Shown here piece after piece: positions 18,009-50,660 of a stretch of DNA of 64,000 nucleotides. Origin of the DNA: Mariniphaga sp. (lineage in GTDB: Bacteria; Bacteroidota; Bacteroidia; Bacteroidales; Prolixibacteraceae); the NCBI GenBank assembly GCA_028702595.1, contig JAQVON010000007.1, positions 9,425-73,424 of the forward strand. Reading direction: 5' to 3'. Each line of letters opens with the position of its first letter. The stretch's first letter is position 1. The notes beneath the pieces were generated by a model. It was not told the DNA's origin, ran no database searches, and saw only the letters and a list, made by a program, of their open reading frames with translations. The translations under genes and the position numbers were made by a program.

Positions 18009-18060
18009 GTAATTGTTAAAGGTAGGTTTGTTCCTTCTGACCATGAGCTCTTCAAATTTA

Positions 18061-18220
18061 GAGACTGTTTTAAATTTATCCATTTATTCTATTTTGCGCT
18101 TTTTTCACTCATACTGCTGCAAAATTTCCTTAAATAGCTATGGCTGTTCGCGTCAATTTTGCCTTGTCTGAGCAAAAAACAGATTAAAAAATTTCTAAAA
18201 AACAAAATCAAAACAGTCTC
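18061..18220 (+). mobile_element. MITE-like non-autonomous element, copy 1 (160 bp)
   Basis: It starts GAGACTGTTTT and ends AAAACAGTCTC. It is flanked by TTA (18058-18060) and TTA (18221-18223). It is near-identical to the four other copies. Confidence 0.85.
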
Positions 18221-19663
18221 TTAGAATTTCACAAATTTTATTCTCTCAGAAGCATGATTGCTGAATAGTACTTCAACAAAATAAATTCCTTTTTCATAGT
18301 TGGAAAGTGGTATTTGCATCACGGGATTTGGGTGAAGAAATTCGTCTGTCAAGTGTCCACTGAGAGTATAAATTCGTAATCTTTCCCCCTGTTCTATTCC
18401 TGAAATATTCAGTTTTTGATCTGCCGGATTTGGGTATACCCGAATTGATTTTTTATGCAGGCCAGGAGTTACCGTATTGTTTGTACTTTCTACCCAATCT
18501 TTCAGTGCCCTGTACCGGTGTGCATCGGTTAATGACTGGTCGGTAGAAGCTTTTGCTCCCCAGGCTCCGCCACTGGACCAACGGGCAACATGGGTGTAAT
18601 GACAGGTGAGTTCAAAATAATCTTTAACTGTATTGAGCCATTCCAGGTACATATCGTAACTTTCGGGATTCTGGCTGAATAGATGGGCATTGGTGGTGTA
18701 ATGCTGTCCTCCTTCGTAGGCAATCAATTTCATTTCAAATGGGGAAATGGCATCAATCACTTTCGAGAAGTGATCGGTTGACTCGGCCAGTTTAGCTGTC
18801 CATTTTGACCGGATATCGGTTGCCGCACCATCGCCGGTATTGATATAGTTGGCAATGGAATAGTAATCGGGGTACAAACCATAAGGATTGAGGTTTTTGT
18901 GCGTTCCCTGGCTCCAGGTTTTGTTTTGCAGGGCTAACATTTGTTGCTGTGTTCCCCAGAAAGAGCCATTCTGGCCGGAAATGACCGTCTTCACCCGGTC
19001 GGCATCTTCACCAAATACATCCAGAAAAGCTTTTTGCAGCCGCGATGCAGCATACACATGAAAATAGAATTTGGCTGTGTATTTGTCCGGATCGAAACCC
19101 AGCTCCAGACCGCGGTCTCCACAATAATCCCCCTGTTGGAAGGATTCACCTCCGCTCCAGGTTTCATTGGAATATTCCACATAAACAATCAGCGAAGTAT
19201 CCAGTTCCGATTTTATGAGTTTAGCCAGGTTTGTCCAGTAATTATTAATGGAGTCTGCTTCCCACGACTCAATGCTTTTGTGGGGAACAGTAATCCAGAT
19301 ATCGGCACCAATGCGGTTGCAAAGATCAATTTGCCATTCATAAGCCACTGCTCCCCGGGGAGTATTGTAATGGTCATCGGTTTTGAGTGTACGTTCATCC
19401 CAGTTCGTAATAGTTGAAGAATTCGTTGGTACCTGATCCATAAACCGAATCACACTGTAAATCTCAATTTCATCGAGAAATTTTTGTCGCCACGGATTGG
19501 ATACCGTATTCCAGTCGATCCCGGAATTGAAATAATCGACTCGACCATTCCCCCAGGAGAAGTTCCAGAAGTTGGTGCCCAGTTTCATGCTGTTCTGCTG
19601 ACTTTCTGCATTTAAATATAAAGCCAGGAGCATGGTGATGAAAAGGAGTTGTTTTTTTATCAT
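18221..19663 (-). CDS. Secreted (beta/alpha)8 clan GH-A-like glycoside hydrolase with T9SS C-terminal sorting domain; family unassigned
   Basis: 480 aa with a signal peptide (LLFITMLLALYLNAESQ). The TIM-barrel-like region has a candidate acid/base in VYVEYSNETW. The C-terminal ~80 aa (IRVYPNPADQKLNI...GIYFVEVLF...IKFVKF) matches the Por/T9SS CTD pattern. Confidence 0.6.
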   Translation of the reverse strand: MIKKQLLFITMLLALYLNAESQQNSMKLGTNFWNFSWGNGRVDYFNSGIDWNTVSNPWRQKFLDEIEIYSVIRFMDQVPTNSSTITNWDERTLKTDDHYNTPRGAVAYEWQIDLCNRIGADIWITVPHKSIESWEADSINNYWTNLAKLIKSELDTSLIVYVEYSNETWSGGESFQQGDYCGDRGLELGFDPDKYTAKFYFHVYAASRLQKAFLDVFGEDADRVKTVISGQNGSFWGTQQQMLALQNKTWSQGTHKNLNPYGLYPDYYSIANYINTGDGAATDIRSKWTAKLAESTDHFSKVIDAISPFEMKLIAYEGGQHYTTNAHLFSQNPESYDMYLEWLNTVKDYFELTCHYTHVARWSSGGAWGAKASTDQSLTDAHRYRALKDWVESTNNTVTPGLHKKSIRVYPNPADQKLNISGIEQGERLRIYTLSGHLTDEFLHPNPVMQIPLSNYEKGIYFVEVLFSNHASERIKFVKF

Positions 19664-19746
19664 CTTATTAAAATTGTTTATTTTACATCAATTGTCGTTC
19701 GTTGGAAAATGACAGCAAAAGTAAGCAATTAAGTAAAAAATTCTAA

Positions 19747-19905
19747 GAGACTGTTTTAAATTTATCCATTTATTCTATTTCGCGTCTTTTTCACTCATGC
19801 TGCTGTAAATTTCCTTTAATAGCTATGGCTATTCGCGTCAATTTTGCCTTGTCTGAGCAAAAAACAGATCAAAATATTTCTAAAAAACAAAATCAAAACA
19901 GTCTC
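19747..19905 (+). mobile_element. MITE-like non-autonomous element, copy 2 (159 bp)
   Basis: It has the same termini as copy 1. The flanks are TAA (19744-19746) and TGA (19906-19908), one mismatch. This is the most diverged copy, differing by a few substitutions. Confidence 0.8.
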
Positions 19906-20186
19906 TGATATTCAAGAAATTTTTCATAGGCAGGCAGCCCTCAACAATGCTTATTTCTGGTTTCATTCCTTTTACTAAGATTTTACTTGTCTACATCAAC
20001 AAATTTATTTTATTTTGAACAATTATGCTTAATCAATTTGTCCGGAAAAAGAAACCGATGGTCCAAAAATAGGGGATTAACAAATTTTTCTGTGATTAAA
20101 TTTATCGTGTTAACGATTTAGCTCAATTAAATGATTTGAAAGTGTTGTATCGAACACTTACCGGATGGATATGAAACGATAAAATT

Positions 20187-21617
20187 ATGAAGTATTTACA
20201 ACTGTTTTTTATTGTACTGATTGGTATACTTCCGGGCTGTAATCAGCCAGAACAGACTGACTCCGACCTGGATTCTTCAATAGGTAAACTGAAGGTGTCG
20301 GACAACCGGAGGTTTTTGGTTTTCGAAGACGGAACTCCGTTTTTTTACCTTGGCGATACTGCCTGGGAGCTGTTTCACCGGTTGAACAAGGAGGAGACCG
20401 GGAAATACTTTGAGAATCGTCGCGAAAGGGGCTTTACCGTGATTCAGGCGGTTGCTCTGGCTGAGCTCGATGGGTTGAACACCCCCAATGCCGAGGGTGA
20501 AACACCTTTGATTGACAACAATCCTGAACACCCCAATGAAAAGTATTTTGCTCATGTTGACTGGGTAATCCGGAAAGCAGAGGAGAAAGGTTTATATATT
20601 GGATTACTCCCCACCTGGGGCGACAAATGGAATGTAAAATGGGGTGAGGGTCCACTGGTTTTCACTCCGGAGAATGCTGGAGTATTCGGCAGGTTTCTGG
20701 GGGAGAGATACAAAGATTTCAAAAACATCATTTGGATCATTGGTGGCGACCGGCCTTTAGAGGAAGATGTTCACCGGGAGATACTGGTTGCCATGGCCAA
20801 CGGACTGCGTAGTGGCGACGGTGGTGCTCATCTGATCACCTTTCATCCCCAGGGTGGACAGGGATCGGCTCAGTATTTTCACGATGAAGAGTGGCTCGAT
20901 TTTAACATGCGTCAGAACGGACATAACCAGCGCTTTACCGGAGTTTATGAAAACATATCGAAAGATTATGGTCGTACTCCTGTTAAACCGGTGATGGATG
21001 GGGAGCCCATTTATGAAGATCATCCCATAGAGTTCAGACCCGACAACTTTGGCCATTCCATATCGGCCGACGTACGCCGGCCGCTCTACTGGAATCTGTT
21101 CAGCGGAGCCTTCGGACACACCTATGGCCATCATTCGGTTTGGCAGATGTGGCAGCCGGGGCGCAATCCGGTTAACCGACCGCTTATGCCCTGGTACGAT
21201 GCCATTAACCAGCCTGGAGCCGCACAAATGCAATACGGGCGATGGCTTCTGGAATCCAGGCCGTTTCTGTCGCGCATCCCTGATAATTCTATGATCGTAA
21301 ACCATGAATATCCTTCATCTTTACCTGGTGCCGGTGTATATACCTTTGTTGCCACACGCGATCAGGAGGGGACATACGCCATGATCTATGCTCCTGTGGG
21401 TAGATCCTTCCAGGTAAAAATGGACGTGATTAAGGGAGACGATGTCATAGCCTGGTGGTATAACCCACGTAACGGGGAAGCAACAAAAATTGGTTTGTTC
21501 CCGAACACCGGAAGCAAAGAGTTTTGCCCTCCGGAAAAAGGTGAGGTGCTCGACTGGGTGCTTGTCCTCGACGATGCATCAAAGAAATATCCCGAACCAG
21601 GAAGTAGAAGGAAATAA
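20187..21617 (+). CDS. GH140-like glycoside hydrolase (DUF4038 catalytic domain plus C-terminal beta-sandwich), lipoprotein
   Basis: 476 aa with signal ...[37 protein letters not shown] and [13 protein letters not shown] match the DUF4038/GH140 N-terminal signature as I recall it. Confidence 0.7.
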
Positions 21618-21618
21618 A

Positions 21619-21644
21619 CCCAGGTGTCAGCTGATACACCTGGG
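21619..21644. terminator. Hairpin between convergent genes (candidate bidirectional terminator)
   Basis: CCCAGGTGT (21619-21627) pairs perfectly with ACACCTGGG (21636-21644) around an 8-nt loop. The hairpin starts 2 nt after the GH140-like stop, between convergent genes. No U-tract follows. Confidence 0.5.
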
Positions 21645-21705
21645 CAGCATATAAGCCGGCAAAATGAAGCAAAGTCATTTTGCTGAAGGAGTTTGATCAG
21701 GTTAT

Positions 21706-23808
21706 CTACTCAATCACAAACTCACGGATGCTTTTTACCGGTTCTCCATTATATTCGATTTCAGCTTCCATACTATATTCCCCTTTTTCCTGTGGCATTT
21801 TCAGCATAAATGTTTCAACCGAACGGTCCCAGGCTGGAAGAGTAACATTTTTTATCAGAGTTTTCACCTCCTCATTGTTATGGTAGAGGGAGAGTTTCAG
21901 CTGTCCGTTCCATATATTCTCCAGGTCATTGATCACATAAACTTCAATTCCTGTATGTACATTCGGCTGAAAGGTTTTATGCCAGAAATCAATCATGATC
22001 CCTACCGGGTTAAAGGCTGGTTTGACATATTTTACGAAGAGGGGATCGTAGGTCAGATTTTTGATGTCGATGAAATTGTCGCTCGTCTGGCCTCTGGGTT
22101 CTTCGGGACGTGAATAGCCAAGACCGCAGAAGTGGAGCACTCCTGCGCACATTCGGTTTGCCCTCCAGTATTCTGTAAGCATTCCCAGGTGACGTGTATA
22201 AGCATACCGGCGTTGATCAACCGTGAGGTTCTCCCCGAACGCGACTTCATAAACATGATCGGTAAGGGTAGTGGGGGAGCCGTCACGATTCAGCCAGAGC
22301 CAGGCATATTCGTTGATGATGATAGGATTCGGATAGCGATCATTGTCCCGGGGTGGATCCCAGCCATGTGGGTCATTCAGCGGAACCTGAATATGGTCAG
22401 TGAAAAAATCAGCCATAGGGCCTTTGGATGATGGCTCTCCTCCTCTCCTGTACCGGCCGAACAGGTAGGGATGGGATTCAATCGGGTCGCTGTCGGATTG
22501 TGGAGCAGACCACCCGTTTTCCCATGGCCGGTTGGAGAGATCCAGATCTCTTACCTGGTTGATAGCTTCCCCGATGGTCTTTGAAACGGATTCATTCTGG
22601 GCATCCCAGATGACTACGCACGGATGGTTCCAGTGTTCCCGCATCCAGGTACGGTATTCATTCGCCAACCGCTCTGTTGTCACTCCCGGATAGATCTGAT
22701 CAAAACCTTCGTGACCGCCGGTCCATACCGGGTATTCATTCTGGATCAGAAAACCCAGACTGTCGGCAATATCGTACCAGATGTCAGGTGGCAGACCAAT
22801 ACAATAGCGGATGGAGTTCCAGTTCATCTCCTTGAACCTCTTGTGCACCTGCGTTACCCAGTCCTTGTTCCAGGGAAGCAGACTACGGTCAGGGTCTTCA
22901 AAGAAACGGCCTATTGTCACGTTTGTACCCCTCATAAAATAGGGCTTGCCATTCAGCATCGCCCTGCCCGTTTCCACATCGAATGAAAACGACCGCATGC
23001 CAAAACGAACAACCTGGTGGTCTGATCCGGTGGAAAGGGTCAGCTCATATAGAAACGGATTTTCCGGGCTCCAAAGCTGACAGTTGGGAATTTGAACAGA
23101 AAAGTCATTGGTTGTTGACTCCCCGGAAGCTATTTTTTTTCCCGTACCTAATTCACAAATCTCATAAGACAAACGAATCGCTTCTGTCTGTTCTCCCAGG
23201 TCAAGGTCGGCCACAATCCTGACTTTCTCTTCCTGGATCATGGGAACAGTCTGGATATTCTGTATATATGGGTAACCTGACAAAATGATGTCAACATGAT
23301 CATAAATGCCGGGTATGTATGTGAGCTTTTCAAAATCATGCCCCCAAACAATGGTGTCAGGCAATTCTTTAACTGTACCCACACCAATTATAATCTCATT
23401 TTCTTCTCCAGGAGCATTCAGGAAATTTTTGATATCAAAACAGGCAGCAGTAAAATTATAGTATTGGTCACCAACCAATTTGTCATTGATAATGACTTTT
23501 GAATGGTATTTGGATTTACCCACTTTTAGCCGGACAACCTCCGGATAATTCTGATCGACCGTGAACCGGGTTTTATACCAGTACACTCCCTGTTCATAAT
23601 CGCGGGTAGTATCCAGAGCGGGGTTCGCCAGATCGACCAGGCCAGGTACAGGTACCTGGCTGGTAAATGCAGAAGGAACATCAGTATAGGAATTGGTTTT
23701 GGTTATCTCCCATTCGCCATCCAGGCGGATCAGGTTCCTGAAGGTTTCATGTTGCTGGCAGCTGAAAAAAGCCAGTAATACCGGAAATATTAAAAGTTTT
23801 ATCTTCAT
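21706..23808 (-). CDS. Glycoside hydrolase family 2 (beta-mannosidase/beta-galactosidase-like), lipoprotein
   Basis: The ORF track gives 21706..23844. The internal ATG 23808 gives lipoprotein signal MKIKLLIFPVLLAFFSC. It has a GH2 sugar-binding domain, an Ig-like domain and a TIM barrel with WDAQNES and IINEYAWLW. Confidence 0.8.
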   Translation of the reverse strand: MKIKLLIFPVLLAFFSCQQHETFRNLIRLDGEWEITKTNSYTDVPSAFTSQVPVPGLVDLANPALDTTRDYEQGVYWYKTRFTVDQNYPEVVRLKVGKSKYHSKVIINDKLVGDQYYNFTAACFDIKNFLNAPGEENEIIIGVGTVKELPDTIVWGHDFEKLTYIPGIYDHVDIILSGYPYIQNIQTVPMIQEEKVRIVADLDLGEQTEAIRLSYEICELGTGKKIASGESTTNDFSVQIPNCQLWSPENPFLYELTLSTGSDHQVVRFGMRSFSFDVETGRAMLNGKPYFMRGTNVTIGRFFEDPDRSLLPWNKDWVTQVHKRFKEMNWNSIRYCIGLPPDIWYDIADSLGFLIQNEYPVWTGGHEGFDQIYPGVTTERLANEYRTWMREHWNHPCVVIWDAQNESVSKTIGEAINQVRDLDLSNRPWENGWSAPQSDSDPIESHPYLFGRYRRGGEPSSKGPMADFFTDHIQVPLNDPHGWDPPRDNDRYPNPIIINEYAWLWLNRDGSPTTLTDHVYEVAFGENLTVDQRRYAYTRHLGMLTEYWRANRMCAGVLHFCGLGYSRPEEPRGQTSDNFIDIKNLTYDPLFVKYVKPAFNPVGIMIDFWHKTFQPNVHTGIEVYVINDLENIWNGQLKLSLYHNNEEVKTLIKNVTLPAWDRSVETFMLKMPQEKGEYSMEAEIEYNGEPVKSIREFVIE

Positions 23809-23860
23809 AGGTTTATTATTTGAGTATTTTATAAAGGTATTCAAGATTAATTTGAATTCT

Positions 23861-23885
23861 TAAAAAACAAAATCAAAACAGTCTC
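23861..23885 (+). repeat. Solo right-end remnant of the MITE (25 nt exact)
   Basis: TAAAAAACAAAATCAAAACAGTCTC is identical to the last 25 nt of the full copies. No left end is present nearby. Its last 2 nt are part of the galU stop codon. Confidence 0.7.
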
Positions 23886-24753
23886 ATAGTTTGCTGGCAT
23901 ATTCCTTCAGCCATTCCCGCAGGGATTGTCCAATTTCAGCATGCTCCAGTCCATAGATAATATTTGTTTTGATGAAGTCGAGTTTATTTCCTATGTCGTA
24001 ACGTGTTCCACTAAATTTCAAACCATACATGGCGTACTTTTTAACCATTTCCCGCATGGCATCGGTCAATTGAATTTCATCATTTTTCCCGGGCATTGTT
24101 TTATCAAGGTAGTTAAAAATTTCGGGAGTGAAAATATAGCGGCTTGCGATGGCCAGGTTGGAAGGGGCTTCCTGAGCCGATGGTTTTTCAATGAAGTCTT
24201 CGGCAATCAGGACATTTTTCTCCAGAATTTTTCCCTTGATAACGCCATATTTATGTACATTTTTCATGGGTACTTTTTCGAGGGCAACCACAGAACTTTT
24301 ATAGCGCTCATAAACCTGGATGAGCTGTTTGGTGATGGGATCTCCTTTCCCACTGATGAGTGTATCACCCAATAGTACTGCAAAAGGTTCATTTCCAACA
24401 TGATCTTTAGCATAGCGGATGGCATCTCCCAATCCGTTCATCTCTTTCTGCCAAACGAAATGAATATTGGCAAGGTTTGATATCTTTTTGATTTGGTCGA
24501 GCAGTTCGAATTGTTTCTTGGCAATGAGTGACTCCTCGAGTTGGGGACTGCGGTCGAAGTGTTCTTCAATAGCTCTTTTTCCTTTTCCAATAATCATCAG
24601 GATATCTGTGATGCCACTTGCAACAGCTTCTTCTACAACATATTGTATTACCGGAGTATCCACGATTGGAATCATCTCTTTGGGTTGCGACTTGGTGATG
24701 GGTAAAAATCGTGTTCCCCATCCGGCAGCAGGTATAACAGCTTTTTTTATCAT
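23884..24753 (-). CDS. galU: UTP-glucose-1-phosphate uridylyltransferase (GalU-type sugar-1-phosphate nucleotidyltransferase)
   Basis: 289 aa. AVIPAAGWGTRFLPITKSQPKEMIPIVD is the canonical GalU N-terminal motif. Confidence 0.9.
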   Translation of the reverse strand: MIKKAVIPAAGWGTRFLPITKSQPKEMIPIVDTPVIQYVVEEAVASGITDILMIIGKGKRAIEEHFDRSPQLEESLIAKKQFELLDQIKKISNLANIHFVWQKEMNGLGDAIRYAKDHVGNEPFAVLLGDTLISGKGDPITKQLIQVYERYKSSVVALEKVPMKNVHKYGVIKGKILEKNVLIAEDFIEKPSAQEAPSNLAIASRYIFTPEIFNYLDKTMPGKNDEIQLTDAMREMVKKYAMYGLKFSGTRYDIGNKLDFIKTNIIYGLEHAEIGQSLREWLKEYASKL

Positions 24754-24763
24754 TTAAATCAGT

Positions 24764-25759: not shown

Positions 25760-25774
25760 ATCTGTTTTTTTCTT

Positions 25775-27679: not shown

Positions 27680-27681
27680 AA

Positions 27682-30080: not shown

Positions 30081-31370
30081 ATGGCAGAAATGGATCAGTT
30101 AATTGAAAAAATCAACAGTGGGAATCATCCTTTATTCCGGGAATTTTATGGGCCCGATACAAAGGTGCTTCAGGAGCAGGCAGATAGATATTGCCAACTG
30201 TTAAAGGATTTCAGGAGTACATATGGAACTGGAGAGGTTGAGCTTTTCAGTTCACCCGGGCGTACAGAAATTGGGGGGAATCACACCGATCATAATTATG
30301 GTCGTGTTTTGGCAGGTGCTGTTAACCTGGATAACATTGCAGTTGCTGCGCCTAATGGCAGCAATATTATTCGTGTTAAATCAGCAGGATATCCTGAGTT
30401 TCAGGTCGATTTGACACAGCTGAAAATTGATGAATCTCAATTTTACACCTCAGGTTCTCTGGTTCAGGGGATTTGTGCCAAAATGAAAGAAAAAGGGTAT
30501 AATATTGGCGGATTTGATGCCTGCATTGAAGGCCGGGTTCCCAAGGGATCGGGATTGAGCTCCTCCGCTTCATTTGAAGTACTGATTGGTGCTATCCTGA
30601 ATGAGCTGTTCAATGATGGGAAGATGTCGGCTGTTGAAAATGCCATCATTGGTCAGTGGGCAGAAAACAACTATTTTGGAAAGCCTTGTGGTTTGATGGA
30701 TCAAACGGCATGCTCGGTGGGAGGATTGATAACCATTGATTTTAAAGACCCGGCCAGTCCTGTGGTGAAAGAAATAGACTTCGACTTTGTTGCAACAGGC
30801 TTTTCACTTGTGATTACCGATGTGGGTGGCGGGCATGACGACGCTGCTTCTCAGGCTGAATATGCTTCATTGCCTACCGAGATGAAATCAGTTGCAGCAG
30901 AGCTTGGGGCTAAAGTACTCCGGGAAGTAACCCTGAAACAAATTGTTGAAAATATACCGGATATTCGTAAAAAAACCGGCGACAGGGCTATCCTTCGTGC
31001 CTATCATTTTCAGGGTGATAATCAACGGGTGGCAAACCAGGTCGCTGCTCTTGAAAAGAATGATTTTCAGTCGTTCCTTCATATGGTAATCGAATCAGGA
31101 TATAGCTCATTCATGTATAACCAGAATATTTATGACGTAGTTCATAAACATGAACAGGTCGTTTCACTGGCATTGGCCCTGAGTGAAATGATTCTGAAAG
31201 GCAGTGGTGCCTGGAGAATCCACGGAGGTGGGTTCGGTGGAACAATCCAGGCGTTTGTCCCGCAAAATAAACTGGATGAGTATACCAACACGCTGGAAAA
31301 TGTATATGGGAAGGGCAGTTGCCATAAATTGTTTATCAGAAAGAAAGGAGCCGTTAAGCTTGATCTCTAA
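30081..31370 (+). CDS. galK: Galactokinase
   Basis: 429 aa. It has the galactokinase signature GRTEIGGNHTDHNYG and the GHMP motif PKGSGLSSSASFEVL. Confidence 0.9.
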   Translation: MAEMDQLIEKINSGNHPLFREFYGPDTKVLQEQADRYCQLLKDFRSTYGTGEVELFSSPGRTEIGGNHTDHNYGRVLAGAVNLDNIAVAAPNGSNIIRVKSAGYPEFQVDLTQLKIDESQFYTSGSLVQGICAKMKEKGYNIGGFDACIEGRVPKGSGLSSSASFEVLIGAILNELFNDGKMSAVENAIIGQWAENNYFGKPCGLMDQTACSVGGLITIDFKDPASPVVKEIDFDFVATGFSLVITDVGGGHDDAASQAEYASLPTEMKSVAAELGAKVLREVTLKQIVENIPDIRKKTGDRAILRAYHFQGDNQRVANQVAALEKNDFQSFLHMVIESGYSSFMYNQNIYDVVHKHEQVVSLALALSEMILKGSGAWRIHGGGFGGTIQAFVPQNKLDEYTNTLENVYGKGSCHKLFIRKKGAVKLDL

Positions 31371-31386
31371 AAAGTTTCACTTTTAA

Positions 31387-31546
31387 GAGACTGTTTTAAA
31401 TTTATCCATTTATTCTGTTTTGCGTCTTTTCCACTCATACTGCTGCAAAATTTCCTTAAATAGCTATGGCTATTCGCGTCAATTTTGCCTTGTCTGAGCA
31501 AAAAACAGATCAAAATATATCTAAAAAACAAAATCAAAACAGTCTC
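31387..31546 (+). mobile_element. MITE-like non-autonomous element, copy 3 (160 bp)
   Basis: It has the same termini as the other copies. It is flanked by TAA (31384-31386) and TAA (31547-31549). It lies between galK and the transporter gene. Confidence 0.85.
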
Positions 31547-31657
31547 TAAGGTTTTTTAGAATCAATAATTTTATACTTTTACCGCAACTTAACATTTCTG
31601 AAAGTTCAATCTCAATTATTAATGAAATATTGATTAAACCATTTTAAAGTTATAATT

Positions 31658-33049
31658 ATGAATAAAAGCAAAAGTTATCTTCTGCCAATTATTATGATGA
31701 TCCTGCTTTTTGGTATGATCTCATTTGTTACTAATCTGGCAGCGCCAATGGGCATTGTGTTGAAGAACCAGTTTAATGTACCCAACTCACTGGGGATGTT
31801 GGGGAACCTGGCAAATTTCATTGCTTACGCCGTTATCGGAATTCCCGGAGGAATTCTTCTGCAAAAAGTAGGTTATAAAAAGACCGCTTTAATAGCCATT
31901 GCTGTGGGTTTTGTCGGGGTAGGCATACAATATTTATCCGGGCATGCCGAGAGTTTTGGTGTTTACCTGCTGGGTGCCTTCATTGCCGGATTCTCTATGT
32001 GTTTGTTGAATATTGTTGTAAACCCGATGCTGAATACATTGGGTGGTGGTGGAAATAAAGGGAATCAGCTCATTCAGGTGGGCGGCTCATTCAACTCGGT
32101 GCTGGCCACATTTACTCCTGTATTTGTTGGTATTCTGATTGGAGAAGCTACAAAAGCGAGGATAACTGATGTATTCCCGGTAATGTATATCGCTATGGGT
32201 GTATTTGCCCTGGTGTTCGTTATTCTTTGGATTACATCCATTCCGGAACCTCATGCTGATCAGCCGAAAGAACCTCTTGGAAACCTGATGTCAGGGGCGT
32301 TGAAGTTCCGCCATTTTGTGCTGGGAGCTATTGCCATATTTGTATATGTTGGTGTTGAAGTGGGAACTCCCGGAATTGCGAATTTATACATGACAACCCC
32401 AAGTATTGAAAAATCACAGGAAATTATTGATACCTATAATAGTCAGCCTTCCGCAGTGAGTGAAGATGCCTATGAAACAGCACAAAGAATCGTTGATGGC
32501 AGAGATACTCCCGGCCTGGGTATAGCCACCGGAATTGCCGGAGGAGTTGTTGGCTTCTACTGGTTATTGATGTTGGTTGGCCGGTTGTTCGGCGCTGGCT
32601 TTGGCCATAAAGTTCCAAGCAGAAAGATGTTAAGCTTTGCTTCACTCTTTGGATTATTGCTGGTTATCCTGGCCATCTTCTGGCCGGTTAAGACCATGAT
32701 CTCTATGCCCGCGTTCAGTGTGGGAACTGGTGGATTAACATTTGGAATGGTGCCTGTTCCGATTAAATTTTTCTTCTTAGCGCTGGTTGGATTATGTACC
32801 TCAATTATGTGGGGAAGTATCTTCAATCTTGCTGTTGAAGGATTGGGAAAATACCTGGCTGCTGCCTCTGGTATTTTTATGGTGCTGGTTTGCGGTGGTG
32901 GTATCCTGCCTGCTATTCAGGGATGGCTTGCCGATGTGTTGAACTACGAGATGAGCTACTGGCTGATCGTTGGCGGGTTGGCATATTTGTTGTTCTACGG
33001 AGCTTTGGGAAGCAAGGTAACCAAAAGAGCTGAAGACCTTATTGTTTAA
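31658..33049 (+). CDS. MFS sugar transporter (glucose/galactose or fucose permease GluP/FucP type)
   Basis: 463 aa and about 12 TM helices. The N-terminal region (SFVTNLAAPMGIVLKNQF) and overall pattern resemble FucP/GluP-type permeases. The genomic context is galK. Confidence 0.8.
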   Translation: MNKSKSYLLPIIMMILLFGMISFVTNLAAPMGIVLKNQFNVPNSLGMLGNLANFIAYAVIGIPGGILLQKVGYKKTALIAIAVGFVGVGIQYLSGHAESFGVYLLGAFIAGFSMCLLNIVVNPMLNTLGGGGNKGNQLIQVGGSFNSVLATFTPVFVGILIGEATKARITDVFPVMYIAMGVFALVFVILWITSIPEPHADQPKEPLGNLMSGALKFRHFVLGAIAIFVYVGVEVGTPGIANLYMTTPSIEKSQEIIDTYNSQPSAVSEDAYETAQRIVDGRDTPGLGIATGIAGGVVGFYWLLMLVGRLFGAGFGHKVPSRKMLSFASLFGLLLVILAIFWPVKTMISMPAFSVGTGGLTFGMVPVPIKFFFLALVGLCTSIMWGSIFNLAVEGLGKYLAAASGIFMVLVCGGGILPAIQGWLADVLNYEMSYWLIVGGLAYLLFYGALGSKVTKRAEDLIV

Positions 33050-34599: not shown

Positions 34600-36036
34600 T
34601 TAATTTTTAGTTACTCTCCCAGGTTGCCGGCGGTTTTTCCCCGGGATGTCTTTTAATTCATCACCCAGGTCTTCCCGTGCTTCATGGGCGATTTTTTCCA
34701 GTTCCCGAACAATTTCAGGGTGTGATTCGCTTACGTCATAACGCTCTCCCGGGTCACGTCGAAGATCATACAATCCTCCTTCAAACAAATAGTTTCCGTT
34801 TACCTTCCCGGGCAACCCGTCATTCCCCGGCTGAAAACCTTCATATGTTCTTCCGGGGTGGGGTAAAACCAGCTTCCAGTGATTAGTCCGGACAGCCTCC
34901 AGACTGTTTTGACGGTAGTAATAGTAAAAAGATTTCCGCGGGTGTACATTGAAATTTCCCTGGAGAAGGGGCAACAGGTTTACCCCGTCAATTTTATTTT
35001 CTGGAAGTGGTGCTCCGGAAACCGAAGCTAGTGTGGGAAGAATGTCAATGCTGGAAGCCAGGTTGTTGCAAACGGTGCTTTCGGGGATCACTCCTTTCCA
35101 CATCATCAGACAGGGGATACGCTGCCCGCCTTCAAAAGAAGTGCCTTTCCCTTCACGTAACCCGGCAGTACTGCCGGCATGATTGCCGTAATTCAACCAG
35201 GGGCCGTTGTCGGAGGTAAAGATTACCAGCGTGTTTCCGACTAACCCGGTTTCTTCCAGCGTTTGGATAATCTGTCCGACACTCCAGTCAATCTCCATCA
35301 TGACATCACCATATAAACCTTGTGCCGACTTCCCTTTGAATTTATCAGATACATGCAATGGAACATGCGGCATGGGGTGGGGCAGGTAAACAAAAAACGG
35401 CTGCTTTTGGTTACGCTTGATAAAATCAACTGTGCGAAGCGTGAAATCAGTTGTAAACTGTTCCTGGTCAGCCGGTGTAACCGCCGGGTTAATGATGGAA
35501 TCATTCTCAAAAAGAGGCAGGTCAGGGAAAACATTCGGTCCACTCGGATGGTATGGCCACATGTCATTGGAGTATGGAATCCCGTAGAATTCATCAAATC
35601 CGTGATGAATGGGCAGAAATTGTTGCTGGAACCCTAAATGCCATTTCCCAAATATGGCAGTAGCATATCCCTTTTTCTTCAGTACCTCGGCGATGGTCTC
35701 TTCTTCATCAGAAATGCCGGTGAGCGACCTGTGGCTTAACGCACCTGAAAAACCAATCCGGTTGGGATAACAACCAGTGAGCAACCCTGCACGGGAAGCA
35801 CTGCAAACTGCCTGAGGTGAATAGAAATGGGTGAAAAACATGCCATTGGTGGCCATCCGGTCCAAATTGGGAGTGGAATACCCTGTCGCCCCGGTAAGGG
35901 ACAGGTCTCCATAACCCATATCGTCAAGATAGATCAGGACGATATTGGGTAACTGACTTTTTTCTTCGTCAGCTTGCTGTGTGCACGATGCGAAGAGCAA
36001 AAATAAAATTGTTGAGAATAGTGTTGTTCCCTTCAT
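34600..36036 (-). CDS. Sulfatase (S1 family, arylsulfatase A-like), lipoprotein
   Basis: 478 aa with signal ...LLFASC. It has NIVLIYLDDMGYGDL and the FGly motif CSASRAGLLTG. Confidence 0.9.
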   Translation of the reverse strand: MKGTTLFSTILFLLFASCTQQADEEKSQLPNIVLIYLDDMGYGDLSLTGATGYSTPNLDRMATNGMFFTHFYSPQAVCSASRAGLLTGCYPNRIGFSGALSHRSLTGISDEEETIAEVLKKKGYATAIFGKWHLGFQQQFLPIHHGFDEFYGIPYSNDMWPYHPSGPNVFPDLPLFENDSIINPAVTPADQEQFTTDFTLRTVDFIKRNQKQPFFVYLPHPMPHVPLHVSDKFKGKSAQGLYGDVMMEIDWSVGQIIQTLEETGLVGNTLVIFTSDNGPWLNYGNHAGSTAGLREGKGTSFEGGQRIPCLMMWKGVIPESTVCNNLASSIDILPTLASVSGAPLPENKIDGVNLLPLLQGNFNVHPRKSFYYYYRQNSLEAVRTNHWKLVLPHPGRTYEGFQPGNDGLPGKVNGNYLFEGGLYDLRRDPGERYDVSESHPEIVRELEKIAHEAREDLGDELKDIPGKNRRQPGRVTKN

Positions 36037-36216
36037 AGCCTTGGTTTTTTTATGATTAAATTTATTCTGTATGCTTTTCGAAAAACTAAAAGAACAATTG
36101 TTTAACAGAACAGGTGAATGTTGCTTTGTTCAGTAGTTGTTTAACCACACGAATAGTTTGAAAAAAGAGGGGAAAGATATAAAACATAGCCATGTTTTAC
36201 AACAATTTTTTAATAA

Positions 36217-36375
36217 GAGACTGTTTTGATTTTGTTTTTTAGAAATATTTTGATCTGTTTTTGCTCAGACAAGGCAAAATTGACGCGAATAGCCATAGCT
36301 ATTTAAGGAAATTTTGCAGCAGTATGAGTGAAAAAGACACAAAATAGAATAAATGGGTAAATTTAAAACAGTCTC
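36217..36375 (-). mobile_element. MITE-like non-autonomous element, copy 4 (159 bp, inverted relative to the others)
   Basis: Its reverse complement aligns end to end with copies 1-3 and 5. It is flanked by TAA (36214-36216) and TAA (36376-36378). Confidence 0.85.
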
Positions 36376-36503
36376 TAAGATTAGCATGAATTCTTTTTAA
36401 AAATCGATGATGGAAATCTCTATTTTAGGGGAGATGGCAAGCATTGGGGCATGATTGGTGTTACACCGGAAAATGAAAAACTTCCCGGGTGTGTGGAAAG
36501 GGC

Positions 36504-37154
36504 TCAGTTTTCAGGGGCTGAGGATTTCCGTAAAATTTGTAAGCTGCCGGGTCCCTCGTTAAAGAGCAGGTCGAGGATGCTTAAATTGGGAATAAAGCCA
36601 GTCCTTTCATGAAATACCTGCGTATATTCCACCGGGTTAAACAGGGGATCTTCCCATGCTTTTTGCTTTTTAGGAGAAAGAGCTTCCCTGAAATTTAGGG
36701 TGTGTTCAGGAACAGCTTCAAATGCTTCCGTCAAAACAGACCTGTTTTCTATTTCGAGTAAGTTACATATTGTATTCAGGGCTTCCAGATTGAAGTCGAG
36801 GAGATATTTTCCCCGTTTTTCAAAAAAGGGTTGCAGGTCGTCGCTGTAATACTCAAAAAAAGGTGAAGAGTTGTAAGCTGAAAAGATGGTGCGCCAATGG
36901 TTGCGCTGCCACTCCGTGTCGTAAGAAATTTGCAGGTCTTTGATGCCGGTTTTCTGAGTGCGGCCTTTCACTACCGGAACAATGAGTGAAACAGGGCCGT
37001 TTGCTCCTGAAATGACACACCTGTTTCGAAAGGTTTGTTTGGAGAAATTTTCAAACTGTTCAATATAAACATGTTCATAAAGAACCAGTTTTGAAATGTA
37101 TTGAACCGGTGGAAAAAATGCTGTACTCAGAAGAATTGCCTGATCTTGGAACAT
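36504..37154 (-). CDS. WbqC family protein
   Basis: 216 aa. The segment from FFPPVQYISKLVLYEHVYIEQFENFSKQTFRNRCVI through NGPVSLIVPV matches the WbqC-like family pattern. Confidence 0.75.
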   Translation of the reverse strand: MFQDQAILLSTAFFPPVQYISKLVLYEHVYIEQFENFSKQTFRNRCVISGANGPVSLIVPVVKGRTQKTGIKDLQISYDTEWQRNHWRTIFSAYNSSPFFEYYSDDLQPFFEKRGKYLLDFNLEALNTICNLLEIENRSVLTEAFEAVPEHTLNFREALSPKKQKAWEDPLFNPVEYTQVFHERTGFIPNLSILDLLFNEGPGSLQILRKSSAPEN

Positions 37155-43425: not shown

Positions 43426-43522
43426 GGGAAGTCGAATTTTTAAGAGTACTCTGTTCTCATCTGACTGATGATTCGTCATTAACTTGAAAATAATAATTGT
43501 GAAAAATTTCACTCCAGCAACT

Positions 43523-44988: not shown

Positions 44989-44996
44989 TACCCCTG

Positions 44997-45089
44997 TTAA
45001 TTTTTCCGGCCGGTCTTCCAGTACTTGAAAATCAGAAAAATAACAAATACCGCGATCAGAACGTATATGAGTAATTTAGTTTGTTGCAT
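44997..45089 (-). CDS. Possible 30-aa single-TM small protein
   Basis: The sequence is MQQTKLLIYVLIAVFVIFLIFKYWKTGRKN. Its ATG begins 1 nt after the TAG stop of the NlpC/P60 gene (TAGcATG). It has a hydrophobic core plus a basic tail. No other support. Confidence 0.25.
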   Translation of the reverse strand: MQQTKLLIYVLIAVFVIFLIFKYWKTGRKN

Positions 45090-45090
45090 G

Positions 45091-45879: not shown

Positions 45880-46114
45880 TTGAATAATGATTACATGTGA
45901 TAAAATAGATTAATTTTTTCAATTTATGAAGTGGGCAAGTTAGAATTTCTTAATTTTATTTCGAAAAATTTTTATCCATCTGCTCACGCATGAATAAACG
46001 CAAATCTATAAAAAAAACGCTGCCTGGTAAACAGGATGAATTATTATTTGTAATATACATGGATAGAAAAACATTCCTGCCTGAAACAGATTATTAATTT
46101 TAATATACAGTACA

Positions 46115-48202
46115 GTGGAAAACTTTTTAACAAGATTGAAAAAATACTCCCGGATATTCTATTGGTTTTTTGTCTTTCTGATGACCAGCGTCATGCTTTT
46201 TCTTGTTCTTCCGGGAGAGCCCCGGTTTAAATATGAGTACCAGAAAGGATTCCCCTGGAAGCATGAAACTATCGTTGCTCCTTTCAATTTTGCGATATTG
46301 AAATCTCCCGTGGAGATAGACAAGGAAAAGAAAGAACAAATGAATTTGCTCATTCCTTATTTTACTTATGATACTACACTTGCTGTTCAAAAAATTTCGC
46401 AGTTTGAAAGTGACTGGCATAGTTTTGCACATACTGACACAGCGTTGCAGAAAGCTGTTTTCAGGGAAGTGGCACAGTTCCTGCAGCATATTTATCAGGC
46501 AGGTATCCTTCCTCGTTCGGCTGATACATTCGATGAACTTGCAGGAAAGAATGAGTTGAATAAAAGGGTAGGCAACCGGGTCTCAAAAGTAGCTACGGAA
46601 AAGATATTTTCCGAGAAATCGGCATACCACGAATTCAGGACGCTACTGCAGCAACTGGAAAAACGATTTCCCAAGGAAGCAGTACCCCTGGCAAATATGA
46701 CTCCTGAAAAATACATCACTTCCAATTTAGTTTTTGACGAATTGACAACCCAAAAGGAGAGTGAAGAACTGGTAAAAAATATCTCTGTAACCCGCGGCAT
46801 GGTTCAGGCCGGCGACCGGATTATTTTGGAGAATGAAATGGTCGACGAGGAGAAGTTTCAGGTTTTAGAATCTTTGAAAGAAAGCTATGAACAGGAGAGG
46901 GGTACAGGGATAAACCGCTATATCATATCGGTGGGTAAGGGTACACTGATAGTCGTTCTTATGATTCTGCTCTTTACATTTCTGTATATCTATCGCATGG
47001 ATGTGCTGATGCAGTTTAGCAAACTCTCTTTTCTTCTGCTTTTTATGGTGAGTATCATTTTTATTTCCCATTTGCTTAACTCATTTCCAAATATACATAT
47101 CTACCTCGTTCCGTTTGCGATATTTCCCATCGTAATTCGCACATTTTTCGATTCGCGCACAGCCATATTTACTCTTCTGATTGCTGCACTGGTTACCGGT
47201 TTTTATGCTCCCAATAATTATGAATTCGTATTGCTACAGGTAACTGCCGGAATTGTTGCTGTTTTTAGTCTGAACAGGATGCATCGACGTGGTCACCTGA
47301 TCATGGCTGCTATTTGGGTATTGTTAACCTACATCCTGGTGTTTGCTGCACTTGAAGTGATTTATGAGGGGACTATCCTGACCATTGATTTTAAAATGTT
47401 CCGGTGGTTTATCTTCAGTAGCGTTCTTATCTTATTAATTTACCCCCTGCTATTTATCTTTGAAAAAATTTTCGGATTTGTTTCAGACGTTACTCTCATT
47501 GAGCTGTCAGATACTAACCAGCCTCTGTTGCGAAAACTTGCTGAAGAAGCCCCGGGCACTTTTCAACATTCCATGCAGATTGCTAATCTGGGTGAGGAGA
47601 TTATCCTGAAGATTGGAGGAAACCCATTCCTGGTTCGTGCCGGAGCTCTATATCATGATATTGGCAAGGTTGCCAGCCCGGGTTTTTTTATTGAAAATCA
47701 GGCGCTCGGGATTAATCCTCACGACAATATGAACTACCTGAAAAGTGCTGAAGTGATTATCGATCATGTGAAAAATGGTGTCAAAATGGCAAAACGACAT
47801 AAGCTCCCCGAATCCCTGGTGGAATTTATTGCCACTCATCATGGCACCACAAAAGCACAATATTTTTACCTGAAGCATCAGGAAGAAAATCCCAACGAAA
47901 AAGTCAGGGAAGATTCTTTTATCTATCCCGGCCCTCTTCCCAAAACCAGGGAAGCAGCTGTTGTGATGATCGTCGATGGCATCGAAGCAGCATCAAGAAG
48001 CCTGAAGGAAAAAAATCAGGAAAACCTGAAAGAACTGATTGAGAAAATGGTAGACCAAAAAATCAGGGACAGGCAACTGGAAGAATCGAGCCTTACCTTC
48101 CGTGATATTAAGATTATTAAAGAAACACTGCTCAATAAACTGGTCAATATTTACCATGTGCGGATAGAATATCCAAAAGAGAAAGAAAACAAGGAGAAAT
48201 AA
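46115..48202 (+). CDS. 7TM receptor with intracellular HD/HDIG phosphohydrolase domain (PgpH/YqfF-like)
   Basis: 695 aa with an apparent GTG start. It has an extracellular N-domain, 7 TM helices, and an HD domain (HSMQIANLGEE, ALYHDIGK, THHGT). Confidence 0.8.
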   Translation: MENFLTRLKKYSRIFYWFFVFLMTSVMLFLVLPGEPRFKYEYQKGFPWKHETIVAPFNFAILKSPVEIDKEKKEQMNLLIPYFTYDTTLAVQKISQFESDWHSFAHTDTALQKAVFREVAQFLQHIYQAGILPRSADTFDELAGKNELNKRVGNRVSKVATEKIFSEKSAYHEFRTLLQQLEKRFPKEAVPLANMTPEKYITSNLVFDELTTQKESEELVKNISVTRGMVQAGDRIILENEMVDEEKFQVLESLKESYEQERGTGINRYIISVGKGTLIVVLMILLFTFLYIYRMDVLMQFSKLSFLLLFMVSIIFISHLLNSFPNIHIYLVPFAIFPIVIRTFFDSRTAIFTLLIAALVTGFYAPNNYEFVLLQVTAGIVAVFSLNRMHRRGHLIMAAIWVLLTYILVFAALEVIYEGTILTIDFKMFRWFIFSSVLILLIYPLLFIFEKIFGFVSDVTLIELSDTNQPLLRKLAEEAPGTFQHSMQIANLGEEIILKIGGNPFLVRAGALYHDIGKVASPGFFIENQALGINPHDNMNYLKSAEVIIDHVKNGVKMAKRHKLPESLVEFIATHHGTTKAQYFYLKHQEENPNEKVREDSFIYPGPLPKTREAAVVMIVDGIEAASRSLKEKNQENLKELIEKMVDQKIRDRQLEESSLTFRDIKIIKETLLNKLVNIYHVRIEYPKEKENKEK

Positions 48203-48222
48203 CCCTGAGATTTGTTAGTTTT

Positions 48223-49707
48223 GTGGCGAAATTTTTAGCTTTTACTGAAGTGATCAAGGTACGAAATAATATTTTTTTTCTTTTGCTGACAGCCGGGATA
48301 ATTTTCTCCTGTAAGGAGCCTCCGTTGCCTTTGCCTCAACCCGGAACCGGACAGGACCCCGTAAATGAGGATGAACAGGAGACCACGGAATTAACTATTA
48401 AAATCAACCGGTTTATTCAATATGTAATGAAAGATATTTACCTCTGGAGCAGTCAGCTTCCACCGATTGATATCCGGTATGAACCTGATCCGAAAGATTA
48501 TTTTGATAAATTATTATTCAAGGAAGATAAGTGGTCCTATATTACCGATGATATTATTGCTCTGGAAAAAAGTTTTAACGGGGTAGAAACCACTTTTGGG
48601 TACTCCCTTGCTTTTGGCCGGTTTATTGATACCCAGGATATTTTTGCAGTGGTTGAATATGTTTATCCGGGTACTCCCGCTGCTAACGCCGGACTAAAAA
48701 GAGGAGATTTGATTTTTTTAATGAATAATGCTCCTGTAAATATGAATAATTACCTTGATCTATTATACGCCCGGACTCTTGCTGTTACTTTTGGCAAGTA
48801 CTCGGAAGACCTGGGGATTCATGATATAAAGGATGTGAGTATGGAAGCCAGAGAGCTTAATCTTGACCCTGTACTTATTTCGGATGTAATTGAACACGAA
48901 GGGCATAAAATTGGGTACCTGTTTTATACACAATATATTCAGAAGTATAATGCAAGTCTCGATTCGGCATTCAAGCTGTTTCTGGATGAGGACATTTCTG
49001 CACTGGTGATTGATTTGCGCTATAACCCAGGTGGCGTTGTTACTGCAGCTCAATATCTTTGTAGCTCAGTAGCCCCGTTGAGTGTAGTGAATGGTGAAAA
49101 GACACTGGTTACTTACCAATGGAATGATAAATACCAATATATTTGGAAGTTTACAAATAACCGGCCTCAAGTTGAAGAAAAGTTTATGGCTACCACAACC
49201 TATCAGCTGGGTCTGAATAAAATTTATTTCCTCACAGGTGATGGTACTGCCTCTGCGTCGGAGCTTACAATTACAGGTCTGCGCCCCTATATGCAGGTGA
49301 TTACTGTCGGGGAAACAACCTATGGCAAATATACCGGCTCGTGGACAATTAAACCGGAAGATTATTACAGGGATACCACGTATTATACTGACTTTGCTAA
49401 CTGGGGATTACAGCCTATTATTCTTCGTTTTGCCAACTCTTTGGGTGTTACTGATTTTAAAGATGGTTTTTATCCTGATATTCCTGCTGAGGATGTTCTG
49501 CTTGGTGCTTTTCCTTTGGGTGATAAAGATGAACCCCTATTGAAGAAAGCCATTGAAGATATTAGCGGAACTCCTGTTCTTGCCAGGAAAAAGGCAGTAA
49601 TCAAAGCCCCTTATGCCATTTTTGACCGGGGATTTTCGAGGTTTGATGCCAATAAAAGGGAATTGTTATTTGATGATATCCCTGTTCAACATCTCGATCA
49701 GAAGTAG
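48223..49707 (+). CDS. S41 family (C-terminal processing/tail-specific-like) peptidase with PDZ domain, lipoprotein
   Basis: 494 aa with an apparent GTG start; the exact start is uncertain. The signal is ...LLLTAGIIFSC. It has a PDZ domain (GTPAANAGLKRGDLIFLMNNAPV) and S41 blocks (LVIDLRYNPGGV, TASASELTITGL). Confidence 0.8.
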   Translation: MAKFLAFTEVIKVRNNIFFLLLTAGIIFSCKEPPLPLPQPGTGQDPVNEDEQETTELTIKINRFIQYVMKDIYLWSSQLPPIDIRYEPDPKDYFDKLLFKEDKWSYITDDIIALEKSFNGVETTFGYSLAFGRFIDTQDIFAVVEYVYPGTPAANAGLKRGDLIFLMNNAPVNMNNYLDLLYARTLAVTFGKYSEDLGIHDIKDVSMEARELNLDPVLISDVIEHEGHKIGYLFYTQYIQKYNASLDSAFKLFLDEDISALVIDLRYNPGGVVTAAQYLCSSVAPLSVVNGEKTLVTYQWNDKYQYIWKFTNNRPQVEEKFMATTTYQLGLNKIYFLTGDGTASASELTITGLRPYMQVITVGETTYGKYTGSWTIKPEDYYRDTTYYTDFANWGLQPIILRFANSLGVTDFKDGFYPDIPAEDVLLGAFPLGDKDEPLLKKAIEDISGTPVLARKKAVIKAPYAIFDRGFSRFDANKRELLFDDIPVQHLDQK

Positions 49708-49714
49708 TTATTTT

Positions 49715-50452
49715 TTACTGTGCAGGTTGTTCCTGTACCACTGATCCCAGTCCTTCTATGTCTTTTGTAACCTGTGGATTTCCTTTGTATTTAATTTTTC
49801 CGGCACCCCGGATTACAACATGTAATGAATTGGTAGCGTGAACTTTAGCCGTTCCAATGCCTTCAATTCTGAAATTTACTTCTCTTGCTTTTAATTCTTC
49901 GGCCTGAATATGGCCTGCTCCGGCAAGCCTGACGTCAAAATTTTCGGTTACTCCACTGAGTTTGCATAATACCCCTCCTTTGTTTTCAAGGTTAATCTTG
50001 TTGGCTTTCAGTGAAATATCAGTTTTTGCACCGCCTTCCAATAACAAATCAAGGTCGTCGAATTCAAGGTATCCCCGGGTTTCGAGCTGAATACTTCCAA
50101 AAATCTGCAGGTACTCCAGTTCATCGATGGTAACAAAAAGAGTTATTTTGCTCAAATCAAAAGGCTTGCGGTCAACATGCAGGTGAAGCAACCCCCTTTC
50201 GTTTGTAATCGTCAGGTATTCAAACGCTTTTGGATCAGAAACCCTGATCTCCAATCCAGGCTCATCTCCCTGCAGAAGTTGAACCCCAAATGCGCCTTCT
50301 AATAACAGTCCCTTAAACTGTCCCGTTTTATAGGTTTTAGAAGACCATCCTTCATCCTGACTTAACCCGTTTAATGGGTTGATAATAACCAGGAAAAGAG
50401 AAACAATGAATCCTAACCCGAATTTCTTAAAAGTGTTTAACCCTGTTTGCAT
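49715..50452 (-). CDS. DUF2807 / head GIN domain-containing protein (beta-helix)
   Basis: The ORF track gives 49715..50503, but its first 8 codons (MDKFKTVS) come from the MITE. I start at ATG 50452 (MQTGLNTFKKFGLGFIVSLFLVIINP). It has a repetitive G-rich beta-helix and ends in the typical motif IRGAGKIKYKGNPQV. Confidence 0.7.
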   Translation of the reverse strand: MQTGLNTFKKFGLGFIVSLFLVIINPLNGLSQDEGWSSKTYKTGQFKGLLLEGAFGVQLLQGDEPGLEIRVSDPKAFEYLTITNERGLLHLHVDRKPFDLSKITLFVTIDELEYLQIFGSIQLETRGYLEFDDLDLLLEGGAKTDISLKANKINLENKGGVLCKLSGVTENFDVRLAGAGHIQAEELKAREVNFRIEGIGTAKVHATNSLHVVIRGAGKIKYKGNPQVTKDIEGLGSVVQEQPAQ

Positions 50453-50480
50453 CTGTATAAAATTTATTTCAATGTATTTA

Positions 50481-50641
50481 GAGACTGTTTTAAATTTATC
50501 CATTTATTCTATTTTGCGTCTTTTTTCACTCATACTGCTGCAAAATTTCCTTAAATAGCTATGGCTATTCGCGTCAATTTTGCCTTGTCTGAGCAAAAAA
50601 CAGATCAAAATATTTCTAAAAAACAAAATCAAAACAGTCTC
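50481..50641 (+). mobile_element. MITE-like non-autonomous element, copy 5 (161 bp)
   Basis: It has the same termini as the other copies. It is flanked by TTA (50478-50480) and TTA (50642-50644). Confidence 0.85.
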
Positions 50642-50660
50642 TTAAAAATGACTGGAATGA

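Follow-up and report, generated by a model that had tools for sequence, protein, structure and literature searches.

A family of 160-bp MITE-like elements with three-base T-W-A target-site duplications in Mariniphaga

A 64,000-nucleotide (64-kb) stretch of contig JAQVON010000007.1 from Mariniphaga sp. (Prolixibacteraceae; assembly GCA_028702595.1), referred to here as the window, contains five dispersed repeats that we identify with high confidence as copies of a non-autonomous DNA transposon, namely a transposable element of the miniature inverted-repeat kind (MITE), about 160 bp long and without coding capacity. An initial annotation, made from the sequence alone, had read these repeats as the footprint of transposition rather than as a repetitive extragenic palindromic (REP) element or an RNA gene, and this reading is supported by direct duplications at 30 of 38 insertion sites, by a precise empty site in relatives and by self-insertion of the element. 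Selfish DNA of this kind is well known; the family itself is new. All five copies were confirmed at the positions first given for them and are listed below, with their target-site duplications (TSDs), together with a solo terminal remnant.

18061..18220, + strand: MITE copy c1 (160 bp); TSD TTA at 18058-18060 and 18221-18223
19747..19905, + strand: MITE copy c2 (159 bp); flanks TAA/TGA, a TSD with one mismatch
23855..23885, + strand: solo right-end remnant, 31 nt, 93.5% identity, final 25 nt exact
31387..31546, + strand: MITE copy c3 (160 bp); TSD TAA at 31384-31386 and 31547-31549; empty orthologous sites in relatives
36217..36375, - strand: MITE copy c4 (159 bp, inverted); + strand TSD TAA at 36214-36216 and 36376-36378
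50481..50641, + strand: MITE copy c5 (161 bp); TSD TTA at 50478-50480 and 50642-50644

The copies in the window are 159-161 bp long, and every one starts with GAGACTGTTTT and ends with AAAACAGTCTC. Without a mismatch, the 11-mer GAGACTGTTTT (in forward or reverse-complement form) bounds every one of the five copies on both sides and recurs once at 23875-23885. When one mismatch was allowed, the window held 13 matches to the 11-mer versus 1.6 expected, and none of 100 shuffled sequences reached 13; the two that stand alone, at 34900 and 40981, each have one mismatch and are consistent with chance. With c1 as the query, BLASTN returned four other full-length matches in the window at 93.75-97.5% identity (E values 1e-66 to 1e-75), confirming that the copies are nearly identical, and in a multiple alignment that included 20 nt of flanking sequence, similarity began and stopped exactly at the element termini. 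The terminal inverted repeat (TIR), described initially as 11 perfect base pairs extending imperfectly to about 17 bp, does extend in this way, with 15 of 17 positions matching in the arm alignment. It is perfect over 11 bp in all five window copies and in nearly all others, about seven copies having one terminal substitution. No internal tandem repeat was present in the element. The 25-nt exact right-end remnant reported at 23861-23885 was also recovered, and its BLASTN match reaches 31 nt (23855-23885); the flank of this remnant is ATA, not TWA.

On the + strand, the trinucleotides that flank c1 to c5 are TTA/TTA, TAA/TGA, TAA/TAA, TAA/TAA and TTA/TTA, as originally listed. Whether the flank match would hold in a larger set of copies had been set beforehand as a test. 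We compiled 39 independent full-length insertions, 38 of them with both flanks, from the window, a second Mariniphaga metagenome-assembled genome (MAG), a MAG of the Bacteroidales and 60 loci in metagenomes. The 3 bp were repeated exactly and in direct orientation at 30 of the 38 scorable sites (TTA/TTA at 20, TAA/TAA at nine and TCA/TCA at one). Since the outer bases of T-N-A are palindromic, the middle base is the discriminating test between a direct match and a complementary one. It was complementary (TAA/TTA), as an extended inverted repeat would need, at a single site and direct at 30, showing that the flank match is direct rather than inverted. The 23-nt target windows were 77% A+T, without an extended consensus past T-W-A.

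The element has also inserted into itself. At loci L067 and L069, a copy lies in the TTA of another copy's terminus, giving the junction ...GAGACTGTTTTA|GAGACTGTTTTAAA... In both cases (L067 623-794 and L069 2200-2235), a 12-nt piece of terminus, GAGACTGTTTTA, stands immediately before another left end, which belongs to a full copy in L067 and to a 24-nt remnant in L069. This arrangement is the expected product of nested insertion at a TTA inside the terminus.

Comparison with related Prolixibacteraceae revealed an empty site for c3. Three groups of relatives share the galK-MFS gene order (MFS, major facilitator superfamily), and their galK is 85-87% identical to that of the window at the protein level and ~71-77% identical at the DNA level. 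The galK-MFS spacer is 287 nt long in the window versus 116-138 nt in the syntenic relatives. Upon removal of the 160-bp c3 and one TAA, the window and L105 aligned gap-free across the point of insertion, and the alignment to L108 had single-base gaps some nucleotides away from it; a single TAA is present in both L105 and L108 exactly at the c3 insertion point. Similarly, BLAST placed window positions 31386 and 31553 at the adjacent L108 positions 11306 and 11309. The empty site was seen in L105/L106/L107, L108 and L109, and these represent one strictly orthologous site. The c3 insertion is a feature of one lineage, its relatives being empty at this site, and the expectation that empty sites would differ by exactly the element plus 3 bp was borne out at c3 (163 bp removed, gap-free versus L105). 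No MITE copies were found in ~48 kb of the relatives' DNA.

Other sites were less informative. For c4 there was no clean orthologous empty site, a relative having a NUDIX gene there: in L108, a NUDIX hydrolase gene (15812-16541) lies between the sulfatase and WbqC-like genes, where window 36037-36503 holds c4 instead. A second match resembling an empty site (the L046 junction versus L023 and L108) extended over only ~80-100 nt, may represent a paralogous spacer and was not counted.

These data bear on whether the repeats could instead be structured non-coding RNA (ncRNA) genes or regulatory palindromes, such as REP/BIME-like (bacterial interspersed mosaic element) repeats or hairpins of the IS200/IS605 type, and not a cut-and-paste MITE. 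The intergenic location of the copies and a stable, evolutionarily maintained hairpin, described below, would be in keeping with such an origin. REPs, however, are units of 20-40 nt without duplications, and IS200/IS605 derivatives lack TIRs and duplications, whereas the unit here is 160 bp long, with perfect TIRs and 3-bp direct duplications at 30 of 38 unrelated sites, a precise empty site and self-insertion. Rfam covariance models gave no matches at the gathering score across the whole window. The duplication and empty-site data therefore contradict an ncRNA or REP origin, which we regard as highly improbable.

From end to end the element reads as an imperfect palindrome, in which 55 of ~78 positions are Watson-Crick. 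The predicted RNA fold of one strand has an energy of -33.9 kcal/mol (z -4.6) and that of the other -51.8 kcal/mol (z -7.1), both far below the values of shuffled sequences. A strand asymmetry of the fold was considered as a sign of a role at the RNA level and was rejected, as the difference in strand energy rests on G.U versus A.C positions, which numbered 7 versus 3 and did not differ significantly. A subfamily that is 74% identical (L015, L068) differs at ~41 positions, and yet 96.8% of the pair cells are still paired in it. Eleven pairs were changed on both sides, compared to 5.6 +/- 1.6 in column shuffles and 0-3 with the structure slid by 1-3 columns; this covariation stems from effectively one or two independent lineages. 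The hairpin has thus been maintained, whether by selection or by conversion of one arm to match the other.

Syntenic conservation together with covariation had been named initially as a result that would indicate an ncRNA gene rather than a mobile element. Covariation is indeed present between the subfamilies, but synteny is absent, the copies being scattered over unrelated positions and every one being flanked by a duplication of its own. Because the covarying copies are non-syntenic, the structure appears to be conserved within a mobile element and not within an ncRNA gene.

The hairpin may nevertheless have been co-opted or be required, either as RNA that stabilizes, processes or terminates operon transcripts or as a DNA hairpin used in transposition. 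The compensatory changes, the paired cells and the fold energies are in line with this, as is the position of c1 and c5 inside tight tandem gene pairs, and compensatory changes have been documented in bcr1, a transcribed mobile bacterial repeat (PMC3184786). On the other hand, the covariation comes from so few lineages, the orientation of copies relative to flanking transcription (14 versus 7) and the G.U to A.C ratio show no significant bias, there is no U-tract after the hairpin, and arm-to-arm conversion within a palindrome could yield the same pattern without selection. Selection on the whole-length hairpin, whether for recognition in transposition or as a module for RNA processing, stability or termination in Bacteroidota operons, is a reading that we consider rather doubtful; under it, the mobilizing transposase may in addition belong to an undescribed lineage.

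The MITE is not confined to the window, but it is limited to certain lineages. Among species-representative genomes, an exact 20-nt terminal pattern identified six copies in another MAG, designated 'uncultured Mariniphaga sp.', of which three are full-length and three are cut by contig ends; they are ~95% identical and have a diagnostic variant, GATGTA for GATCTG. The same 20-nt scan revealed one copy of 74.5% identity in a Bacteroidales MAG, which hosts the 74%-identical subfamily, and a 21-nt terminal pattern was found at at least 60 loci in metagenome contigs. Contigs of many assemblies terminate inside the element, as expected of a dispersed repeat. The density on long contigs is ~1 copy per 13-25 kb, and by extrapolation from this density, rather than by counting, the genome copy number is estimated to be on the order of 200-400. 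In another metagenome, L055 contains an 88%-identical variant (325-506) that has a 22-nt G+C-rich insertion (CCCCCGCAGGGATGCCTATGGCA) near its right end and has one compensatory pair change in common with the divergent subfamily.

Solo left-end remnants were also observed, at L041 11192-11213, L061 7077-7098, L074 1039-1060, L069 2212-2235, L052 12594-12618, L027 12777-12808 and L071 12921-12950 (the same site as L066 5118-5147). These are mostly 22-32 nt long and intermediate lengths are rare, the 21-nt search pattern setting a floor on the lengths seen; at three unrelated loci the break falls at exactly 22 nt (GAGACTGTTTTAAATTTATCCA). Deletion driven by the palindrome, or a breakpoint that is favored, may explain this clustering of remnant lengths. 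Two loci showed larger rearrangements. L078 contains a 451-bp tandem duplication (469-1393) with units 95% identical, and an 819-bp stretch is common to L078 and L037 (411-1229) at 98% identity, in inverted orientation and adjoining MITE copies; this shared stretch may be a MITE-associated rearrangement around a gene for a type IX secretion system (T9SS) protein.

As to the origin of the element, GAG termini and a 3-bp (2-4 bp) T-N-A duplication are the signature of the IS5/IS1031 group of insertion sequences (IS) in ISfinder, and the GAGACTGTTTT termini, with duplications of TTA, TAA or TCA, fit this rule. More broadly, the ends of elements in the IS1031, ISL2 and IS427 groups of IS5 read GAG (or GGG/GGC) and then a CTGTTT-like core, and their target duplication is a 3-bp T-N-A/TWA. 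The initial annotation had tentatively matched the element to the IS1031 group of the IS5 family, and its TWA duplications to PIF/Harbinger-type relatives. In favor of that assignment, and as its sole tool-based support, the termini resemble those of ISPg4, an IS5-family element of Porphyromonas gingivalis (GAGACTGTTGCA / CGCAACAGTCTC; PMC4596501): the start shared by ISPg4 and MITEPgRS, GAGACTGTTGCA, is identical to the GAGACTGTTTTA found here at 10 of 12 positions, a short and suggestive match, and a GAGAC start is common to them. ISPg1 and ISNme1 have termini of GAGACC... (PMC4596501), and IS5-derived MITEs are documented in P. gingivalis (PMC4596501, PMC2575886). The assignment to the family stays provisional. 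From the termini and the duplication, we consider an IS5-family parent likely, at the level of the family rather than of a subgroup.

Searches for a transposase were negative. The initial statement that no transposase open reading frame (ORF) exists in the window was borne out: none was found by Pfam marks on contig stretches, Pfam scans of 30 further large ORFs or, for the five of these that Pfam left unmatched, an NCBIfam scan, with a few ORFs of 120-200 amino acids lying outside both sets of scans. The term non-autonomous is thereby supported. Terminal patterns gave no parent IS among species-representative genomes (20-mer), viral contigs (18-mer) or metagenome contigs (21-mer, at least 60 loci). 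Within ~830 kb of related loci, no parent IS was found from inverted terminus pairs 300-4000 bp apart or from shared internal repeats of at least 300 bp, and no transposase was found when all ORFs were scanned for the IS5-type DxGY...RxxIExxFxxLK motif. BLASTN against plasmids with the full element and both ends returned chance matches only, and a Bacteroidota (Cardinium) plasmid browsed for an IS5 example contained none. Short matches to the left end only (22-32 nt) were, on inspection, solo remnants beside ordinary genes or chance matches.

Several observations weigh against the interpretation of the repeats as an IS5-derived MITE. First, the duplication is imperfect at eight of the 38 sites, seven differing at one position and one at two. 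Second, near-identical strains showed no polymorphism between filled and empty sites, all being filled; candidate strain-level empty sites for c1/c2, c3, c4 and c5 were rejected, as contigs with identical flanking proteins were either filled or ended inside the element. Third, an autonomous element or transposase with the same termini was not found in the window, in the ~830 kb of related loci, in the plasmid collection or in the species-representative genomes and metagenome contigs reached by the terminal patterns of 18-21 nt, leaving the transposase family unproven. Finally, elements of the IS427 group captured by experiment in Paracoccus mostly have 2-bp duplications (PMC3281130), and for IS elements of Porphyromonas, TSDs of anything between 2 and 9 bp have been published (PMC4596501). 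Given such variable lengths, terminus similarity alone does not fix the IS5 subgroup.

Mobilization of the MITE by a transposase outside IS5, i.e., one of another DDE family with short T/A-centered duplications or one not yet described, would be in keeping with the failure to find a partner IS. The TSD-length rules for subgroups are loose, and the IS5 assignment draws on 10 of 12 terminal bases and on the ISfinder family table. Against such a transposase, GAG termini with a 3-bp TNA duplication are generally known as the IS5/IS1031 signature in ISfinder, the flanks are at odds with a 2-bp TA duplication as made by the IS630/mariner type, and the terminus is nearly matched by that of an IS5-family element from a related order. 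We consider a non-IS5 mobilizer unlikely, though still deserving of some weight, and an IS5-family parent the better-favored of the two.

The known systems closest in host are the P. gingivalis MITEs (MITEPgRS/MITE464 and BrickBuilt) with their IS5-family partners ISPg4 and ISPg1 (PMC4596501, PMC2575886), whose host belongs to the same phylum. Like the element described here, these MITEs are non-coding and restricted to intergenic DNA, but they have no sequence similarity to it past the termini. They are 84-991 nt long with 23- or 41-nt tandem repeats, whereas our element is a uniform 160 bp without tandem repeats; their duplications are irregular where ours are regular 3-bp TWA, and they number ~10-20 copies per genome, compared to a far higher number here by extrapolation. 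The IS1031/ISL2/IS427 groups and PIF/Harbinger, with its Tourist-like MITEs, resemble the element in termini and TWA duplication; PIF/Harbinger elements, in contrast, are eukaryotic. A relationship between IS5 and Harbinger is cited in PMC12730594.

Nezha (Anabaena/Nostoc), Chunjie, Correia, ERIC and RUP are of similar size (~100-235 bp), A+T rich, with TIRs and TSDs and very stable predicted hairpins, but their sequences and hosts are unrelated to this element. The duplication of Correia, ERIC and RUP is TA. That of Chunjie is 9 bp (PMC3184786). These MITEs show filled and empty sites between related species and insert in operons without disrupting genes, and some of them have a partner IS that their host genome lacks (PMC3184786). 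Bacteroidota go unmentioned in a review of prokaryotic MITEs from 2024, and our literature search found no description of this element, of its terminus or of a MITE in Prolixibacteraceae.

All 39 compiled insertion sites are intergenic, and the intergenic placement of the window copies reported initially was confirmed, the start codons of gene calls falling outside the elements. Mechanically predicted ORFs at 16527..18083 and 49715..50503 intrude 23 nt into c1 and c5, whereas the start codons on identical public contigs are at 18044 and 50452, both outside these copies. One public annotation (a 514-amino-acid call in GCA_028705055.1; L002 3550-5094) begins inside the MITE, whereas other annotations start 13-25 nt outside it. 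With mechanical ORFs and this call starting inside the MITE, start-codon calls are inconsistent because of the element. Of the ORFs called in the copies on matching public contigs, only one lies wholly inside (27 amino acids, c2), and one of 40 amino acids runs from c5 into the flank. ATGs that read outward are present at both element termini, and gene callers may produce chimeric starts from them. In L037, an ATG within the MITE left end (ATGGATAAATTTAAAACAGTCTC, outward) opens an 85-amino-acid ORF (1317-1574, + strand) that continues into an apparent truncated T9SS C-terminal sorting domain.

The right TSD copy of c1 is the TAA stop codon of a minus-strand T9SS gene (18221-19663), placing c1 directly after a stop codon (0 nt), and its left TSD is 13 nt from the start (18044) of the next gene. 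Copy c5 is placed similarly tightly, between gene 50661-51251 (- strand) and a DUF2807 gene (49715-50452, - strand). Copy c2 lies in the divergent spacer between 18221-19663 (- strand) and 20187-21617 (+ strand), c3 between galK (30081-31370) and an MFS transporter gene (31658-33049), and c4 between a sulfatase gene (34600-36036, - strand) and a WbqC-like gene (36504-37154, - strand). At the solo remnant, the TGA stop codon of a nucleotidyltransferase (NTP-transferase, RmlA-like) gene (23884-24753, - strand) is formed by a flanking T and the remnant's terminal GA on the opposite strand; the ortholog in L109 has the same protein length and ends at the same residue, with TAA as its stop.

Targeting of stop codons was considered and rejected. 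A stop codon was the target in six of 33 insertions, which is no enrichment over the 4.5 that the TWA sites in these spacers would give by chance; the insertions represent tolerance, not targeting. Orientation relative to flanking transcription was, as given above, not significantly biased.

The window encodes T9SS-sorted proteins, sulfatases and glycoside hydrolases, and proteins encoded in it are identical to those of MAGs listed at NCBI as Mariniphaga sp. (Prolixibacteraceae, Bacteroidota). It also encodes an 813-amino-acid protein (12757-15198, - strand) with many ankyrin repeats and a weak glycosyl-hydrolase-59-like region, an architecture uncommon in bacteria. Elsewhere, L066 has an ORF that by eye resembles a tyrosine recombinase/integrase (509-1747, - strand) 288 nt from a MITE copy; such an enzyme does not explain an element with TIRs and TSDs.

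A plausible sequence of events can be proposed for the MITE. A DDE transposase supplied from elsewhere, encoded by a full-length IS with GAGACTGTTTT termini, would bind both ends of the element and cut the target with a 3-nt stagger at TNA, after which gap repair would produce the 3-bp duplication. The partner would most probably be an IS5-family element (IS1031, ISL2 or IS427-like group), and the MITE may be an internal-deletion derivative of this partner or a fortuitous carrier of its ends. Amplification would have been separate in each host lineage, given the lineage-specific variants. Deletions, probably promoted by the palindrome, would leave terminal remnants. The insertions that survive are all intergenic, several of them lying exactly at TAA stop codons, which are restored by the duplication.

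MITEs have rarely been described in Bacteroidota, the only worked example that we found being that of Porphyromonas gingivalis. The present family is abundant, the 64-kb window alone holding five copies and the whole set amounting to at least 39 independent sites, and its 3-bp TWA signature is unusually clean. It exemplifies its kind clearly but is ordinary, and changes no concept. In practice, the element breaks short-read assemblies of its host organism, is useful as a strain or lineage marker and is a warning for annotation, with start codons and small ORFs called inside it. It may also point the way to an active transposase of IS5-like type in the Prolixibacteraceae. If its hairpin were under selection, the element would be more than inert selfish DNA.

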